From the NCBI GenBank assembly GCA_963724765.1, contig CAVRVY010000003.1:32001-96000 (forward strand): DNA of 64,000 bases. Reading direction: 5' to 3'. The first letter of the stretch is position 1; every line of letters begins with the position of its first letter. The stretch is from an uncultured delta proteobacterium. GTDB lineage: Bacteria > Desulfobacterota > Binatia > Binatales > Binataceae. The notes under the pieces are model-generated. The model was not told the origin of the DNA, searched no databases, and saw nothing but the letters and a program-made list of their open reading frames with translations. A program made the translations under genes and the position numbers. Shown here in pieces: positions 11,264-51,792 of this stretch.

Positions 11264-12442
11264 ATGGCGAAAACGGCCGATGTGGTGATTGTCGGCGCGG
11301 GCGTGATGGGCGCCAGCATCGCCTTTAACCTGGCCCAGCGCGGGGTCTCAAACGTGGCCGTCTTAGAGAAGAGCTTCATCGCCGCCGGCGCCACCGGCAA
11401 GAGTTCCGCATGCGTGCGGCAGCATTACTCGACCGAAGTCGGTGCGCGGATGGTAATGCGCAGCCTGGAGATCTTCCAGAACTTCTCAGAGATCGTCGGC
11501 GGACCGGCTGGATTCGTGAAGACCGGCTACCTGATGGGCGTCGGCGAGCGCGACCATAAGGCGCTCAAGAAGGTAGTCGCGATGCAGCAGGCGGTGGGAA
11601 TCAAGACCTCGCTGCTGTCGCCGAAAGAAATCAGGGAAATCGAGCCGCGGGTGTCGATTCATGACCTCGCGGCCGGGGCATGGGAGCCGGATTCGGGTTA
11701 CGCCGATCCTTCGGATACGACCAACGCTTTCATGCGGCGCGCTCGCGAGATGGGTGTTCGTCTATATCAAAACACCCAGGTCACCGGGTTGAAGACGACC
11801 GCGGGAGCGATAGCGGAGGTAACTACGAGCCATGACAGTTTTTCCGCTCCCACGGTGATTAATGCCGCGGGCGTATGGGGAGACCGGATTGGCGCGATGT
11901 TGGGAATCCACATTCCGATAACTGTCTGCCGCCATCAGATCCGGCTAATCAAGCGCCCCGAAGCGGCCTCCGCGCGTCACCCGATGTTCTACGACTTTGA
12001 ACATCAATTTTACTCCAGGCCCGAGGGTAGAGACCTCACCCTTATCGGTACCTTGGACCCTGCCGAGATCAACGACCGGATAGATCCGGACGGCTACAAC
12101 GACGGTGTCGACTCGGAGCAGACTCCGGACGTGGTAGCTGCTTTGTGTGATCGCTTTCCCAGCTTCGAGGCGGGGCATCTGCACAGTGGCTATTCTGGTC
12201 CCTTCGACGTGACCCCCGATTGGCATCCGATTATCGACGAGGCGCCCGGCGTTCGTGGCTTCTATCTCGCGCTAGGATTCAGCGGCCACGGATTCAAACT
12301 GTCGCCGGCTGTGGGCGAGATGGTCGCCGAGCTGGTGATTAACGGCAAGCGAGCGGAGTCCGACGTCAACACGTTCCGTTACAGCCGCTTTGCCGAAAAT
12401 CAGCCGGTGCGCGGCATGTACGATGAAGGGCTCATGGGCTGA
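11264..12442 (+). CDS. FAD-dependent amine oxidoreductase (sarcosine oxidase beta / DAO family)
   Basis: VVIVGAGVMG dinucleotide fold, GATGKSSA, TPDWHPII, GFSGHGFKLSPAVG. GGAGG RBS before ATG 11264. Confidence 0.9.
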   Translation: MAKTADVVIVGAGVMGASIAFNLAQRGVSNVAVLEKSFIAAGATGKSSACVRQHYSTEVGARMVMRSLEIFQNFSEIVGGPAGFVKTGYLMGVGERDHKALKKVVAMQQAVGIKTSLLSPKEIREIEPRVSIHDLAAGAWEPDSGYADPSDTTNAFMRRAREMGVRLYQNTQVTGLKTTAGAIAEVTTSHDSFSAPTVINAAGVWGDRIGAMLGIHIPITVCRHQIRLIKRPEAASARHPMFYDFEHQFYSRPEGRDLTLIGTLDPAEINDRIDPDGYNDGVDSEQTPDVVAALCDRFPSFEAGHLHSGYSGPFDVTPDWHPIIDEAPGVRGFYLALGFSGHGFKLSPAVGEMVAELVINGKRAESDVNTFRYSRFAENQPVRGMYDEGLMG

Positions 12443-13160
12443 GCGAGGGCAAAAACGCATACCAGCCAAGTCAAGAACGCAACCGTCGCCGTTTCCAGTG
12501 GCACACCTCCACGGCCTGGTCATTCCGGACGAGGGTTTCGGTAGGGCACAGCTATACATCACGCGCGTCGGAAATCGCGGTGCCTGGCCGTTCACGGAAA
12601 GCGCAGCAACCCTTGTCAGGGCCACCGATCTGATATGGAGCGGTCATCTGGAGCTCGGACTTCGCCACGCTCGTGGCTCAAAACTTCAGGCTAGCGCATG
12701 GTCGCGCGGGATTTCATCACGCTACCACGTGAAAAACACCTATGCCTCCCGAAAACCTCATCCTGGATGACGCGCGGGTCAGCGTATGGTAATGAAGCGG
12801 CCGATGGTCGCGTTTCTGACTCAGCTGCTGCTTGCTATCCGGTCGCGGTTCACGCGGCGAGCGCGGCTTGAGGCCGAGAATCTCCTCCTGCGCCAACAAC
12901 TGGTAGTTCTACGGCGCAAGTTCCCGAAGCGCGTGAGACTGTGGAACATCGATCGCTTGCTGTTGGTATGGCTGTATCGACTGTACCCCTCGCTCCTGGA
13001 CGCGATCATCATCGTCCAGCCGGAGACCGTGCTCCGCTGGCACCGACGTGGTTTCCGCGCCTATTGGCGCTGGAAGTCCCGCCACGTCGGCGGCCGTCCA
13101 AGGATCGATTGCGAGATGCGAGCGCTGATCCGGCGGGGATGAGCCGCGAGAACCCGCTGT

Positions 13161-13430
13161 GGGGCGCACCGCCACCACCAGCTCGGTCTTGCTCACATCG
13201 ATCCCAACATAGACATCCTCCTCCATCACCCTGCTCCTTACTCCGCGTCCTACCCGTCCTTGTACATGCGGGCTTCTGCCTTGCGCGCGGCCCTGTCAAC
13301 TGTTCGAGCTGCGGACGCTTGAATTAGCGGACGCGACGATCCTGGCTAAACCACGGTCTCTTGCCGACCCAGGTTTTTACGGTCTGCCGCGCCCGCTGCT
13401 ATCTTCATACGCCGATTCTCAGATACAAGG
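13161..13430 (-). mobile_element. IS110 (IS621-like) left end: non-coding region plus first ~22 codons of the recombinase
   Basis: (M)MEEDVYVGIDVSKTELVVAVR is the IS110 DEDD N-terminal motif, with AAGGAG RBS. The element end reads CCTTGTATCT on the minus strand. Confidence 0.85.
13245..13410 (-). ncRNA. Putative IS110 bridge RNA
   Basis: Minus strand: GCAGACCG-TAAAAACCT-GGGTC..GACCGTG-GTTTAG (target loop) and CTCGA-ACAGTTGAC-AGGGC..GCCCGC-ATGTACAAG-G (donor loop). Same layout as the IS621 bridge RNA, recalled from the literature. Confidence 0.75.
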
Positions 13431-13751
13431 TTTTGACTAAGCACAGGGGTAAACGCTCCAACCGCGAGGCGGAGCCCGTCGAGATGCATCATCATCTGCC
13501 AGAGAAGTCCGCGGATGAGATCACGCGCGGGTCCTGGTCACACCTAAAGGGGGCCGCTTTGGGCGTCGCGTGCTGGACTGGTCCCGCGTGTTGGTCGGAA
13601 CTTTTTTCCCATGGTCGGAAGTTAAAGAGCGGGGTAGCCTACGACGGCGCTGCCGTGAACACTCCAGGCAAATATTGCATCTTCTGGTTTGCTTTAGTCG
13701 CGCCGAAGGACTAGACCGATTTCAGTCGTCTAATTTGGATGTTGTCTGCCT

Positions 13752-15134
13752 TTGTCGATGGAGGTCGCGGTGACTCCGAGCAAGGCTGGCCAGGCGTTCG
13801 TAGCAAGGGGCGTGAGTGCTATGGGACAGTGCCCAAGGGCGCTCGCACTCCTGGCGGTAGCGGTCGCGCTCGTCGCGGCGACCGTGTCCGTACGCTGGAC
13901 GAAGATCAGCACGTCGTTCCGTTTGCCCTTTCCGCTAGCCATCACCGACCCCTCGATGACCGTGATCAGCGCCATGGTCGAGCGCGGCGATCTATGGGGA
14001 GCCACCGCACGGGTTGGAAGCTCTTATCATTTCGACAAGCCGGCGGGCCTGATGGCATTGCGCTCGTTTTCGGTGCTCGTGCTGCGCCGCGGACTTCAGG
14101 AGTACGACCCATACGAGCGCTGCTATGCGACGAGCGCTTTAGCGTCAGCCGGTGACCGGGACGAGATCGCGCAACTGGTGAAAATCTTCCAGAGCACCCG
14201 AAAGCTCGGCCTGCAGATGGCCGTCGCGGACGGGCTGGGAGACGTTGGCGACGCGGACGCGGTGGAGGCGCTGGGTCGGCTTTACAGCTGGACCGCGCCT
14301 TCATACCGACGAATCGTGGTCAATGGAGCCGCGGAGGCCCACGATCCCGGAGCAGTCGAGCTGCTAAGCCGCGCGCTGACCGTATCCGACCGTGCGACGC
14401 GACTGACCGCGGCGAAGGGACTCGGCGAGGTCGGGAACCGCAGCGCCATCCCGGTCCTGAGGCGGTTCCTGGCTACCGCGCAGGACCCTTTCGAAAAGGC
14501 GACGGCCGCTTATTCGCTATTGCGCTTGGGCGACCGCTCCGCGGAGGAGATCGCCGAGCCGATTTTGCGTGGCCATGTCGATGATAATGCCCGGGCGATG
14601 GCGGCGGTGGCGCTCGGTCGTGCGCGCGACCCGCGAGTAGTCGGCCTGCTGAGGGAGGCGATAAGAGATCGCAATATCGACGTGCGAATCGGCGCGGCAG
14701 TGGCGCTTACGCACTATGACGATCCCGCCGGCCCCGAGTACCTGGAGGCGGCCATGCAGGACGAGGACTCGATGACGCGGCTACATGTCGGTCAACTCCT
14801 GGACGAGGTGGAGTTTCAAAACGCGCGCGAGGTTCTGATGGCGGCGGTCGCTTCGCCGGACCCCGAATTGTCAATGCTGGGGATTCGGGCGATCGGCTTG
14901 TCAGGCGGCGCCGGCGAAGTCGGCCTTCTCGTCAGGCTGGCGGACAAAGCCGGGGACCCGATCACTCGCGCCGAGGTGGCGTGGGCGTTGGGCAGAATTG
15001 GCAGTCGTGGCTCTGTCGCGCCACTGATCGCGATGGTCTCGGAGCTTGACCATACCGTGCGTTACACAGCCGCCGACGCGCTCGACCGCACGGCGATGCG
15101 GCTTTTGCAAAGCGAATCGGCCGGCGGCGCGTGA
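13752..15134 (+). CDS. Membrane-anchored HEAT-repeat (PBS-lyase-like) protein
   Basis: N-terminal hydrophobic segment and repeated helix pairs (RLTAAKGLGEVG, RAMAAVALGR, VRIGAAVAL, RAEVAWALGRIG, VRYTAADAL). Confidence 0.8.
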   Translation: MSMEVAVTPSKAGQAFVARGVSAMGQCPRALALLAVAVALVAATVSVRWTKISTSFRLPFPLAITDPSMTVISAMVERGDLWGATARVGSSYHFDKPAGLMALRSFSVLVLRRGLQEYDPYERCYATSALASAGDRDEIAQLVKIFQSTRKLGLQMAVADGLGDVGDADAVEALGRLYSWTAPSYRRIVVNGAAEAHDPGAVELLSRALTVSDRATRLTAAKGLGEVGNRSAIPVLRRFLATAQDPFEKATAAYSLLRLGDRSAEEIAEPILRGHVDDNARAMAAVALGRARDPRVVGLLREAIRDRNIDVRIGAAVALTHYDDPAGPEYLEAAMQDEDSMTRLHVGQLLDEVEFQNAREVLMAAVASPDPELSMLGIRAIGLSGGAGEVGLLVRLADKAGDPITRAEVAWALGRIGSRGSVAPLIAMVSELDHTVRYTAADALDRTAMRLLQSESAGGA

Positions 15135-17040: not shown

Positions 17041-18134
17041 TCAGGCCGCGAGGCGCTGGTAACGATGGTGCAACCCGCCGACTTCCGGGGTGGCGATGAC
17101 TCGGCCGCTCTGCGGTGATTGTACGCAGCGCGAGTGCGGACAATCCTTGTCGAGTGAGAGATGCGTTCGGGTCAGGTGATAGTAGCCCACGTATGATGAA
17201 AGGAGGCGGCGCAAATGGCGTTCGTTAAGGATGATGACGTGGTCCAGGCACTCCGCCGGATCGAGCCGATCACGCGCTCGACGTAAGCGTTCTGCCACGG
17301 TGAGCGTGGTGCCGTGACGACCTCAGCGATTCCCATCGCGGCGACTCGCTTGCTGAAGACCGAGCCGTAGGAGGTGTCGCGGTCGCGCAGCAGAAAGCTG
17401 GGAGCCGTGCCCCACGGAAACGCTTCTATTACCTGCTGCGAAAGCCACGCCGCCGTGGGATGCTGCGTAACATCGAACTGCACAATCTTTCTGCGACCGT
17501 GAGCCAGGATGATCATCACGTAGAGCAGTCGAAACGAGACCGACACGACGACGAACATGTCGATGGCGGCGATGCCGATTACTTCGTTGCGCAGGAAGCT
17601 ACGCCATGTCGGTGAAGACGTTCCGATTCGTCGCACCATGTACTTTGCGACCGTGGCTTGGCTGACCTCGATACCGAGCTTCAAGAGCTCGCCGTGGATG
17701 CGGGGCGCACCCCACAGCGGGTTGGCGCTGTTCATCTGCCGGATCAGATCACGAACTTCGCGATCTACTGAGGGCCTTCCAGACCTTGAGCGCCAACGCC
17801 AATAGAGCCGGAAGCCTTGTCGATGCCACTGGACTACGGTGGCTGGCTTTACCAACACCATGAGGTTCAAGCACCGTGGCCAGACCCGGTAAAGCCAGAC
17901 CCGGAGTAAGCGATCGAGCGTGGAGAGCCGGACGCGGCCAGGACGCTGGCGACGCAGCACTGTCAGCTGGTGGCGGAGCGCAATGACCTCGAGCTCCAAT
18001 TTCGCGCGGCTGCGAAACCGACCGACGAGCCATGAAAGAAGCGCCAAGATAAATGCGAGCATGCCCGTGACGCTACGGCCGAGCTAGATAAATCGCTAGA
18101 CTTTTCGAGGCTTTCCGAGTTTTCAATAGGGACA
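17041..18134 (-). mobile_element. IS481-like integrase-core element (second subtype), frameshifted near the 3' end
   Basis: Left end TGTCCCTATTGAAAACTCGG. ORF 17172-18062 has NPLWGAPRIHGELL and PRSPWQNAYVERVIG. The tail ECLDHVII...GGLHHRY is in another frame (17041-17255). Confidence 0.9.
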
Positions 18135-18418: not shown

Positions 18419-18735
18419 ATGCGGCGTGTTTATCCTAGCGAAGTTGTTCGATTCGTCGCGCAGTATTTCCCCGAAGCGGCGGAGGAGATTGAACCAACAA
18501 CCGTCAAGCATTTCGCTTTGCCATGGAGGAAAAAGGGATTCGTACGCGCACTCGTCGAACTGACCGAGGCGCTACCCCAGGACCTGATAAATTTGCAAGC
18601 CGATTCGTATTGCGCATTGCTCTCTGGCGTCGCTGCCCTTCACACTGCCCTTGAAGGATGGTCGCATCCGGAAGAACACGCGATTCAGTGGCTCGATGGA
18701 ATCGGCAACCCTCTGACCATTATTTGGCGCGAGTC
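18419..18735 (+). pseudogene. Hypothetical gene, 3'-truncated by an IS fragment
   Basis: GGAGG RBS and ATG 18419. The frame runs into antisense IS sequence at ~18735. Confidence 0.35.
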
Positions 18736-18993
18736 GATGCCAGCGGAGCACGGTCTCCGGCTGGACGATGATGATCGCGCCCAGGAGCGACGGGTACAGT
18801 CGATACAGCCATACCCACCGCAAGCGATCGATGTTCCACAGTCTCACTCGCGTTGGAGACTTGCGTCGTAGAACCGCGAGCTGTTGGCGCGGGAGGAGAT
18901 TTTCGGCCTCAAGCCGCGCTCGCCGCGTAAATCGCGACCGGATAGCAAGCAGCTCCATCATCAATACGCCCGAGTTTAGGTTTTCAATAGCAC
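18736..18993. mobile_element. Mosaic IS481-like remnant: inverted 5' transposase piece joined to a + strand right end
   Basis: 18736-18950 is minus-strand LLAIRSRFTRRARLEAENL...LRWHR. 18955-18993 is + strand HHQYARV* followed by GGTTTTCAATAGCACA. Confidence 0.75.
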
Positions 18994-25071: not shown

Positions 25072-26168
25072 TGTGCTTAGTCAAAACCTAAACTCTGACA
25101 TATTGGTGATGCAGCCCGCCCAGCATTGAGATGACTGCTATGGGACCGAGCTTCTGCGGGCGACGAAAAGTCGGCGCATTCTTGTGCAATGAGAGATGCG
25201 TCCGGACTTCGTTATAATAGGAAGCGTAATTCTTTAGAACGCGACGCAAGTGCGCTTCGTCGAACACCACCAGGTGGTCGAGACATTCGCGCCGGATAGA
25301 GCCGATGAGGCGCTCGACGTGGCCGTTCTGCCACGGTGAGCGCGGTGCAGTCGGATGGTCGCGGATCCGCATTGCCCGAATGCGATGGGTGTAGGCTGGG
25401 CCGAAGGCCCCGTCGCGGTCGCGAATCAGGTGACTGGGCGCTTCATCCCAGGGGAACGCGTCCGTCACCTGACCAGCGATCCACTCGGCGGTCGGATTGG
25501 AAGTGACGCTGATTGTGACTAGCCGCCGGCGGGCGTGACGCAGGATAACCAAGCCATAGAGCAGCTTGAACGAGATGGTGCGCACCACGAACAGATCCAG
25601 CGAAGCGATGCCGGCCGCGTGATTACGCAGGAAAGTCTTCCAACCTTGGGACGGTGGTCGGCGGCGCCGGACCATATACCTGCCGACGGTTGACTCAGCA
25701 ACTTCGATGCCAAGCATCAACAACTCGCCGTGGATCCGCGGTGCGCCCCACAGTGGGTTCTCGCCGCTCATCCGCCGGATCAGCGCTCGAATATCTGAAT
25801 TGATCCGTGGACGGCCGCCGACGTGGCGGGACTTCCAGCGCCAGTATGCGCGGAAACCGCGTCGGTGCCAGCGGAGAATCGTCTCCGGCTGGACGATGAT
25901 AATCGCGTCCAGGAGTGACGGGTAAAGTCGATACAGCCATACGAACAGCAAGCGATCGACGTTCCACAGTCTCACGCGCGTCGGAGACTTGCGCCGTAGA
26001 ATTACAAGCTGTTGGCGCAGGAAGAGATTCTCGGCCTCTAGCCGCGCTCGACTCGTGAACCGCGACCGGATGGCAAGCAGTAGCTGGGTCAGAAACGCGA
26101 CCATCGGCCGCTTCACAAGCATACGCCCATGTGCGCATCATCCCGGATAAGGTTTTCGGAAGGCACAG
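25072..26168 (-). mobile_element. Complete IS481-like element (TGT..ACA ends), transposase 25088-26122
   Basis: Imperfect TIRs TGTGCCTTCCGAAAACC / TGTGCTTAGTCAAAACC. Intact 344-aa ORF with HTH and integrase core ending GGLHHQYVRV. Confidence 0.9.
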
Positions 26169-51654: not shown

Positions 51655-51792
51655 TTCGGCCTCAAGCCGCGCTCGACGTGTGAACCGCGACCGGATAGCA
51701 AGCAGCAGCTGGCTCAGAAACACGACCATCGGCCGCTTTATTACCATACGCCCAACCGCGCGTCATCCCGGATAAGGTTTTCGGGAGGCACA
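51655..51792 (-). mobile_element. IS481-like left end and first ~30 codons
   Basis: TGTGCCTCCCGAAAACCTTATCCGGGATGAC...MVIKRPMVVFLSQLLLAIRSRFTRRARLEAE. Confidence 0.85.

Follow-up and report, generated by a model that had tools for sequence, protein, structure and literature searches.

An IS110-family remnant with a probable bridge RNA gene set to the terminal repeat of a co-resident IS481-like element

Results

An IS110-family remnant and its parts

The window, by which we mean the whole 64,000-nt stretch of DNA that was analysed (G000:C3:32001-96000), carries on its minus strand, at 13160-13427, the initial 268 nt of an IS110-family element of 1255 bp, as identified by comparison with an intact copy elsewhere in the genome. 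Read along that strand from 13445 to 13160, the order is TGTGCTTAGTCAAAAC, a CT dinucleotide, TGTATCTGAG at the start of a 201-nt non-coding region, an ATG at 13226, 22 codons (MEEDVYVGIDVSKTELVVAVRP) and then another repeated element; the 22 recombinase codons and the left end are all that the window copy keeps, the right end being deleted. The features of the locus, including the putative guides of an RNA predicted from the non-coding region, are as follows, together with two target-like sites elsewhere in the window.

13430-13445, minus: left target TGTGCTTAGTCAAAAC, the outermost 16 bp of the host IS481-like element's right terminal inverted repeat; this sequence precedes four of four genomic IS110 copies and starts at least ten unoccupied IS481-like ends
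13428-13429, minus: CT core dinucleotide of the left junction; the intact copy has it at each of its two junctions, unoccupied sites have it once
13160-13427, minus: IS110-family remnant, with the whole 201-nt 5' non-coding region and 22 recombinase codons (286/286 identity to the G000:C4 copy)
13329-13394, minus: predicted first stem-loop (target-binding loop), with an 11-bp outer stem, internal loop and inner hairpin; compensatory changes in 7 of the 11 pairs of helix 1
13371-13379, minus: putative left target guide UAAAAACCU (DNA TAAAAACCT) on the 5' side of the internal loop, 8/9 identical to TCAAAACCT; the equivalent columns in 20 relatives follow their own left flanks
13345-13353, minus: putative right target guide UGGUUUAG (13353-13346; GTTTAG at 13351-13346) and handshake C (13345); its reverse complement CTAAACCA agrees with CTAAACCC at 7/8, and the C pairs with donor position 7 (G)
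13252-13309, minus: predicted second stem-loop (donor-binding loop); helices 4 and 5 have 100% of cells paired and compensatory changes in 3 of 7 pairs
13295-13303, minus: putative left donor guide ACAGUUGAC (DNA ACAGTTGAC), 6/9 to the right end ACGGTTGCT of its own genome and 7/7 outside the core to ACAGTTG of L006, L036 and L037
13258-13264, minus: putative right donor guide UACAAG (13264-13259) and handshake G (13258); complement of the left-end CTTGTA, and the G pairs with target position 7 (C)
13160-13226, minus: first 22 recombinase codons (MEEDVYVGIDVSKTELVVAVRP, read from the sequence), ending at the deletion junction
13160-13172, no strand assigned: 13-bp microhomology GCGGTGCGCCCCA at the deletion junction, common to the IS110 and the IS481-like element, with its two copies 1648 bp apart in the C4 composite
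12743-13172, plus: left 430 bp of the host IS481-like element, comprising the left inverted repeat and the N-terminal part of the transposase (ORF 12786-13142); positions 667-1096 of the 1098-bp reference copy at 96.5% identity
25072-26167, minus: unoccupied full-length IS481-like copy, with the target TCAAAACCTAAAC at 25081-25093 (+) and the transposase ORF at 25088-26122 (-), whose stop TAG is the complement of CTA at 25088-25090
18974-18986, minus: TGAAAACCTAAAC, which differs from the target at one position and lies in a related IS's terminal repeat (TGTGCTATTGAAAACCTAAAC), from a genome scan for the target

The 285-base remnant stretch occurs at four places in the genome, that in the window included: an identical (100%) copy at C4:1580261-1580545, and two 92% copies at C3:216698-216985 (+) and C3:217898-218185 (-), which face each other and are both truncated. 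The window remnant and the C4 copy are identical at 286 of 286 positions when 18 flank bases are counted. The C4 copy is the intact one, with 1255 bp (one CT counted; G000:C4:1579273-1580527), an open frame of 318 aa, and 201 nt upstream of the recombinase gene vs. 100 nt downstream, so that the left end is longer than the right. Its recombinase (L001:610-1566:-) contains the DEDD RuvC-like and Tnp Pfam domains (PF01548 at 1.6e-21 and PF02371 at 4.5e-17), scores 213.9 bits against a cut-off of 140 for the NCBIfam model NF033542, "IS110 family RNA-guided transposase", and matches the solved structures of ISCro4 (E 3e-32) and IS621 (E 1.8e-31) in phmmer. An earlier reading of the window from its letters alone (the sequence-only reading) had assigned the remnant to IS110, an identity which these domains, scores and structural matches, with the 286/286 agreement, confirm.

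The insertion site lies in an IS481-like terminal repeat

The left flank TGTGCTTAGTCAAAAC-CT stands before all four genomic IS110 copies, with unrelated sequence farther out. One of the four, that on C4, has an intact right junction, ...CACGGTTG/CTAAACCCTTACATATTGG (that is, ...GGTTG/CTAAACCCTTACATATT), at which the IS481-like repeat resumes (CT-AAACCC...). Unoccupied ends of the repeated element, at least ten in number, read TGTGCTTAGTCAAAACCTAAACCCTTACATATTGG, and these ends together with the flanks of the IS110 copies place the IS110 inside the IS481-like terminal repeat at CT, which is found at both junctions of the intact copy and singly in empty sites. In the right terminal inverted repeat the insertion separates position 18 from position 19, and the recombinase gene runs antiparallel to the host transposase gene; in the window the insertion parts the outer 16 bp at 13430-13445 from the remainder of the repeat. 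The exact 13-mer TCAAAACCTAAAC occurs eight times in the 5.4-Mb genome, in every case (8/8) in the IS481-like right terminal repeat, and one-mismatch target sites occur at five places, which look like the ends of related elements.

The sequence-only reading had proposed this repeat as the target, CT as the crossover core and the boundary between transposase stop codon and terminal repeat as the point of insertion, and the genome bears it out on each: the repeat flanks 4/4 copies and holds 8/8 exact 13-mers, CT is present at both intact-copy junctions and once in the empty site, and the two sites it cited in the window are present, TCAAAACCTAAAC at 25081-25093 (+) and TGAAAACCTAAAC at 18986-18974 (-) (C3 57081 and C3 50986, less an offset of 32000). 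The host ORF at 25088-26122 (-) ends in TAG, the complement of CTA at 25088-25090, so the CT core overlaps the reverse complement of the stop codon; duplication of CT on insertion keeps the host stop codon, and the outer 18 bp of the repeat (16 bp plus the CT core) are split off.

The host element is 1098 bp long, both of its ends begin TGTGC, and it has 34 BLAST matches in the genome, eight of them near full length, being more numerous there than the IS110. Its name was right only in a loose sense: it has the IS481-type layout of a single DDE (rve) transposase, about 1 kb of length and TGT...ACA terminal repeats, and the 344-aa transposase matches rve_3 at 6.3e-15, but it falls below the NCBIfam cut-offs (IS481, 86.8 bits vs. 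224; IS3, 83.7 vs. 160), so that "IS481-like" is kept here as a loose label and IS481/IS3-like rve element is the best name. The left repeat of the host (TGTGCCTCCCAAAAACCTTATCC; CAAAAACCT/TATCC) agrees with the left guide at 8/9 but with the right guide at only 4/6, and none of the four genomic IS110 copies occupies it. Across the genome, 4 of 12 cognate repeats are occupied, the host is intact in none of the four occupied cases, and the unoccupied copies include eight of near full length.

A deletion removed the recombinase gene and spared the predicted RNA gene

The window follows the composite of IS110 and host on C4 for 286 nt and then jumps to host element position 679; both partners contain the 13 bases GCGGTGCGCCCCA (13172-13160), and in the C4 composite the two occurrences lie at a distance of 1648 bp. 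A deletion between these 13-bp direct repeats removed 1648 bp: all of the recombinase gene after codon 22, the right end and, from the host, 648 bp (reference positions 19-666). Of the host there survive the left 430 bp (12743-13172, +) and the outer 16 bp (13430-13445). With the right end and recombinase gene deleted, the remnant cannot move. The predicted RNA gene of the remnant is complete and has the same sequence as that of G000:C4:1579273-1580527, its coding stretch lying within the 286/286 identity, just as had been claimed of a lost recombinase and a surviving guide RNA.

A simple scan of 13100-13600 for sigma-70 promoters and terminators found none, and the promoters of this organism may differ. 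RNA-library contigs of relatives (four runs, 88-99% identity) cover most of the intact element, with no joints, starts or ends readable in them, and one contig of 178 nt spans element nt 8-185 with three differences; as such contigs cannot show transcription, ends or strand, their coverage is a weak hint at most.

The non-coding region has a conserved two-loop structure

We searched 101 related genomes, the genome of the window included, and found recombinase homologues in 26, a tally that also takes in the unpublished genome G033, otherwise unused. Upstream regions from CT to the start codon were aligned for 20 elements, with recombinases 42-100% identical to the query; three loci with a complete N-terminus were left out, namely L028 and L030, which have no left junction, and L034, which belongs to a second lineage in this genome. 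The RNAalifold consensus of the 20 sequences has an 11-bp stem around an internal loop with a small hairpin, followed by a 4-bp stem around a second internal loop and hairpin; three invariant pairs predicted inside the second loop were removed before pairs were counted. Its five helices hold 22 pairs, with 97.3% of cells paired vs. 84.6% in shuffles and 40-48% with slid partners, compensatory changes were found in 13 of the 22 pairs, and none of 500 shuffles reached any of the five observed measures. The left junction CTTGTAT is invariant in 20/20 relatives.

The minimum-energy fold of the single sequence (z = -2.0) sets five left-guide bases (AAACC) against five right-guide bases (GGUUU), because the two target halves are alike. 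Since this fold pairs the target guides together, putting part of both in a helix, we relied instead on the 20-sequence consensus, in which the guides are unpaired and all four, as proposed from the sequence, fall in internal loops. A search of 12000-15000 against Rfam 15 (E up to 10) returned chance-level matches only (mir-2232, sX15, sR28, flavi_FSE), none of them relevant. We infer that the region encodes a bridge RNA, and the ends of this RNA (at about element nt 34 and 176) and its binding by the recombinase are likewise predicted.

Guides read against flanks and element ends

In the parts of Durrant 2024 (PMC11208160) that set out the IS621 layout, left guides pair with the bottom strand, and so read like the top, right guides pair with the top strand, and the core is included in all four guide pairings. 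In keeping with this layout, UAAAAACCU in the first loop is of the same sense as the left target and core, UGGUUUAG complements the core and right target, and ACAGUUGAC and UACAAG in the second loop match the right and left ends of the element itself; the predicted target for insertion of the right-end/left-end junction donor reads TGTGCTTAGTCAAAACCTAAACCC; TGTGCTTAGTCAAAACCTAAACCCTTAC.

All of the strings quoted in the sequence-only reading are present on the minus strand (TAAAAACCT at 13379-13371, GTTTAG at 13351-13346, ACAGTTGAC at 13303-13295 and ATGTACAAG at 13267-13259), as is the element end TCAAAACCT/TGTATCT with its CT core at 13429-13428. Both target guides hold: the left, UAAAAACCU, matches TCAAAACCT at the claimed 8/9, with position 2 mismatching the target C in every variant seen, and in the right, GTTTAG is the exact complement of CTAAAC and the 8-nt extension UGGUUUAG agrees with CTAAACCC at 7/8. 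The donor guides stand in part. Within ATGTACAAG the six bases TACAAG complement the left-end CTTGTA at 6/6, but the remaining bases are not complementary. The left donor guide ACAGUUGAC, read from ACAGTTGAC, matches the ACAGTTG-CT right end of L006, L036 and L037 at 7/7 outside the core, but reaches only 6/9 against the right end ACGGTTGCT of the intact copy in its own genome, where the core positions (AC) mismatch CT; in G024, G049 and G042a the equivalent guide matches its own right end at 9/9 or 10/10.

Across relatives the guides vary with the flanks. The left guide matches its own left flank at a mean of 6.8/9 in 20 relatives, vs. a mean of 4.39 (sd 0.93) in 350 non-cognate pairings between lineages, of which none reached 8 or more; one relative, G020, has only 4/9 to its own flank. 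Similarly, the right guide matches its own right flank at a mean of 7.0/8, vs. 4.72 in 128 non-cognate pairings, 5.5% of which reach 7, a comparison that covers the 12 relatives with a right end found and leaves 8 of the 20 without one (the G002, G011, G035, G016, G029 group and the G017, G031, G009 group). The guide-target matches of this element are beyond chance.

The handshake rule, in the parts of Hiraizumi 2024 (PMC11208158) that describe it, requires each handshake guide to pair at position 7 with the non-cognate DNA but not with the cognate. In 20/20 relatives the donor-loop base that follows the right donor guide forms a pair with target position 7, and the variants include one compensatory change from C:G to T:A on both sides (G042a) and one G:T. 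In 12/12 the target-loop base that follows the right target guide forms a pair with donor position 7, a result which is uninformative as these columns are invariant.

Copies in other genomes and metagenomes

Among species-representative genomes, two loci (L036 and L037) with recombinases 92% and 93% identical lie in the same IS481-like repeat, with left flanks TGTGCTTAGTCAAAACCT or TGTACTTAGTCAAAACCT, right flanks CTAAACCC(T/G)GACGTATTG and an antisense IS481-like gene just downstream; the host IS proteins there are only 55-62% identical to that of the window copy, vs. 92-93% for the IS110 recombinases. For L006 (G014; the same record as L038) the site is one end of a related IS (TGTGCCTTCTCAAAACCT/CTAATCC), and a degenerate transposase frame of related sequence lies alongside. 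In L039 (71%) the donor loop is retained, but the target guides (UAGUAACCU, UUUUCCAG) are others, as is the left flank, which ends TTAACCT. Two loci yield no right flank, L035 owing to a truncated right end and L039 to the end of its contig.

Metagenome contigs were scanned with a 21-letter pattern for the left end, flank excluded, which gave 51 stretches: 34 of this guide class or cut off just inside the element, seven with other guides (L047, L063, L071, L073, L053, L056 and L080, counted separately) and ten without the IS110 scaffold, which were dropped as chance matches or unrelated remnants. The 34 stretches represent 24 distinct left flanks, of which 18 end AAAACCT and 18 have TGT 13-18 nt upstream of the core, and the distinct right flanks of the guide class read CTAAACCC in 7/7. 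Six of the 24 left flanks depart from AAAACCT (5-7/9 to TCAAAACCT), and five of those six are also without TGT; these five may be off-target sites or diverged repeats. A right end for L081 at 1093 nt, given by a looser pattern, was rejected, as it lay inside the gene and was absent with a stricter pattern.

Where relatives share the left end and donor loop and differ in the guides of the first loop, their flanks differ as well (L039, L056, L080, L071/L073), and in the metagenome copies with other guides the flanks fit the guides where they can be read, for example UUGUAACCU adjoining GTGTAACCT. The other copies showed the same site and orientation in this genome, other genomes and metagenomes, so that a fixed position and single orientation in the terminal inverted repeat of another element are seen at many independent sites. 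The outcome that would have told against the sequence-only reading, other copies placed without relation to this target, was thus not observed. As a separate observation, several relatives insert beside palindromic CTCTCCC...GGGAGAG repeats.

Discussion

We consider it highly probable that 13160-13445 (-) is the left end of a dead 1255-bp copy of an IS110-group element, whose 5' non-coding region encodes a bridge RNA set to the right repeat of the IS481-like element and which later suffered the 1648-bp deletion. By analogy with IS621 biochemistry, in the parts of Durrant 2024 (PMC11208160) and Hiraizumi 2024 (PMC11208158) that describe it, the recombinase of the intact copy would bind the bridge RNA, the first loop would pair with both strands of the IS481-like repeat, the second loop would pair with the joined ends of the excised circle, and strand exchange at CT would give site- and orientation-specific insertion in the repeat.

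The constant flank could also reflect shared descent and no RNA-guided choice, had the IS110 entered once and the composite then been spread by the IS481-like transposase or by segmental duplication. All copies do carry the outer end of the repeat, as a composite moved by the host transposase would, and the two 92% copies on C3 form a rearranged pair that may be a single event. However, the window and C4 copies are identical in their IS110 parts (286/286) and differ at 4 of 197 positions in their host parts, the C4 host part is itself 99.76% identical to an unoccupied copy, and the metagenomes hold many repeat variants among 24 distinct left flanks; identical IS110 parts in differing host parts, together with these variants, argue for repeated insertion and against one spreading composite. 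Spread by the host would also leave unexplained why the loops match the flanks and why relatives with other loops have other flanks, and it sits poorly with L036 and L037, where host proteins of only 55-62% identity accompany recombinases of 92-93%; we regard it as very unlikely. Still less credible is that the 5' region is a mere leader or promoter, with protein-DNA contacts choosing the site and the likeness of loop and flank coincidental: the absence of a relevant Rfam 15 match in 12000-15000 would fit, but compensatory changes in 13/22 pairs, the covariation of guide and flank among 20 relatives, the compensatory handshake change and the homology of the recombinase to those of IS621 and ISCro4, for which RNA guidance is demonstrated, all speak for a guide RNA.

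As to present function only, we see an even chance that the window remnant is inert debris, without useful transcription and adding nothing to transposition of the intact copy. It is without a right end and recombinase gene, the scan of 13100-13600 gave no promoter-like site, and its RNA would equal that of the intact copy, so that no distinct role is needed for it. Against this, its RNA-coding stretch and the 33 nt upstream within the element are unmutated relative to the active copy, and the RNA-library contigs of relatives, one of them the 178-nt contig over element nt 8-185, cover the region, which is a weak hint.

Use of another insertion sequence as a target has precedents, one of them in IS1383, a member of the IS110 family. 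In Pseudomonas putida H, IS1383 reportedly integrates into the inverted repeats of IS1384 (as described by Muller, Lauf and Herrmann in 2001). To judge by the title of that report, it shares with the present element the use of the inverted repeats of another insertion sequence as a specific target, and the present case differs in its host IS, in its bacterial lineage and in having a guide RNA explanation worked out base by base. IS4321 and IS5075 are said to target the terminal repeats of Tn21-family transposons. They share with our element a DEDD transposase and a site- and orientation-specific mode of insertion, the target being a terminal repeat of another mobile element, but are of the IS1111 group with subterminal inverted repeats, whereas the present element has the IS110-group layout with the RNA upstream. 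In the IS1111 group, according to the parts of Durrant 2024 (PMC11208160) and Siddiquee 2024 that treat it, the usual place of the non-coding region is downstream of the gene, and the two matches to the target come in the opposite order; Siddiquee 2024, in the same parts, shows guidance by RNA for one member of the IS110 family and four of the IS1111 family. ISPpu9 and ISPpu10 of Pseudomonas putida, in partial accounts IS110 elements that target REP, similarly aim at a multi-copy genomic repeat, but the repeat targeted here belongs to a mobile element.

With IS621 (E. coli) and ISCro4, as far as the sections of the published accounts on their layout extend, the element shares a recombinase with DEDD and Tnp domains, a non-coding RNA, here predicted, upstream of the recombinase gene, a pair of internal loops holding the left and right target and donor guides, a CT core and the handshake rule at position 7, and its right-donor sequence starts TGTAT in 20/20 relatives. 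It differs in its distant recombinase (phmmer E about 1e-31), in that the target is the terminal repeat of another IS and not a REP element, and in that the core positions of the left donor guide mismatch CT. A literature search for an IS110 element aimed at IS481-like repeats did not find this pairing, which may figure in the supplementary tables of targets for Durrant 2024 and Siddiquee 2024. Other insertion sequences have already been reported to target inverted repeats of mobile elements, and the present case, a clear natural illustration, belongs to this known kind of targeting and involves no new mechanism.

A wider reading, which we put forward as an unlikely one, is that this IS110 lineage is a dedicated parasite that inactivates and erodes IS481-like elements, and that orphan bridge RNA genes like that of the window may be retained because they are still expressed, their RNA joining recombinase produced at another locus and so raising targeting activity or competing for it in trans. 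The locus provides a worked natural example in which the four guides and the handshake positions of one bridge RNA can be read against its target, and it shows one mobile element specialising on another. The guide class is found at 24 distinct soil, peat and wetland metagenome sites, and with its close relatives that carry other guides it forms a natural series for studying the retargeting of bridge RNAs.

Target guides and RNA-library coverage of the IS110 element

Because the target's two halves are alike, the predicted bridge RNA has left and right target guides (window positions 13346-13379, minus strand) with 5 nt of mutual complementarity (AAACC/GGUUU), and in a single-sequence fold the two guides were paired into a helix. 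A soil metatranscriptome library yielded a 178-nt contig whose extent is almost exactly that of the predicted RNA region; the contig aligns with three differences to positions 1583-1760 of L001, the locus holding the intact IS110 copy (element nt 8-185); a contig of this kind shows neither transcription, ends nor strand.

State of the IS481-like hosts and of further IS110 copies

None of the four occupied IS481-like copies in the source genome (G000) is intact; the one adjoining the intact IS110 is truncated, retaining positions 17-863 of 1098 (G000:C4:1578428-1579274). The window holds additional fragments:

1-564, IS481-like fragment
17239-17303, IS481-like fragment
18730-18953, IS481-like fragment
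51656-51792, IS481-like fragment

Most IS481-like copies and fragments lie within the initial 240 kb of contig C3, so that this stretch is IS-rich. Outside the window on the same contig, two IS110 copies, each 92% identical to the window remnant, face each other (G000:C3:216692-218188; loci L003, L004 and L034), joining at about 217611-217621, with about 935 nt retained in one and about 572 nt in the other, and to the left of each the outer end of the repeat is still present. The pair has been rearranged tail to tail, unless, as is possible, it is an artefact of the assembly. IS110 relatives are multi-copy in several related genomes (11 matches in G002, 5 in G042, 3 each in G024 and G049), and some copies in G002 and G016 form inverted pairs about 1.7 kb apart.

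Relatives with other targets

Three relatives, L007 (genome G020), L021 (G024) and L022 (G049), with 45-55% recombinase identity, are inserted next to palindromes of the form CTCTCCC...GGGAGAG, seen in their right flanks and matched by their right guides (GGGAGAG). From these sequences they look REP-targeted, whereas the window lineage is IS-targeted. Close relatives, L039 and the metagenome loci L056, L080, L071/L073, L053 and L047/L063, have left ends that are identical over their first 21 nt, yet differ in both first-loop guides and flanks; the donor loop, compared in L039, is retained there. Judged by guides and flanks, these close relatives constitute a natural retargeting series.
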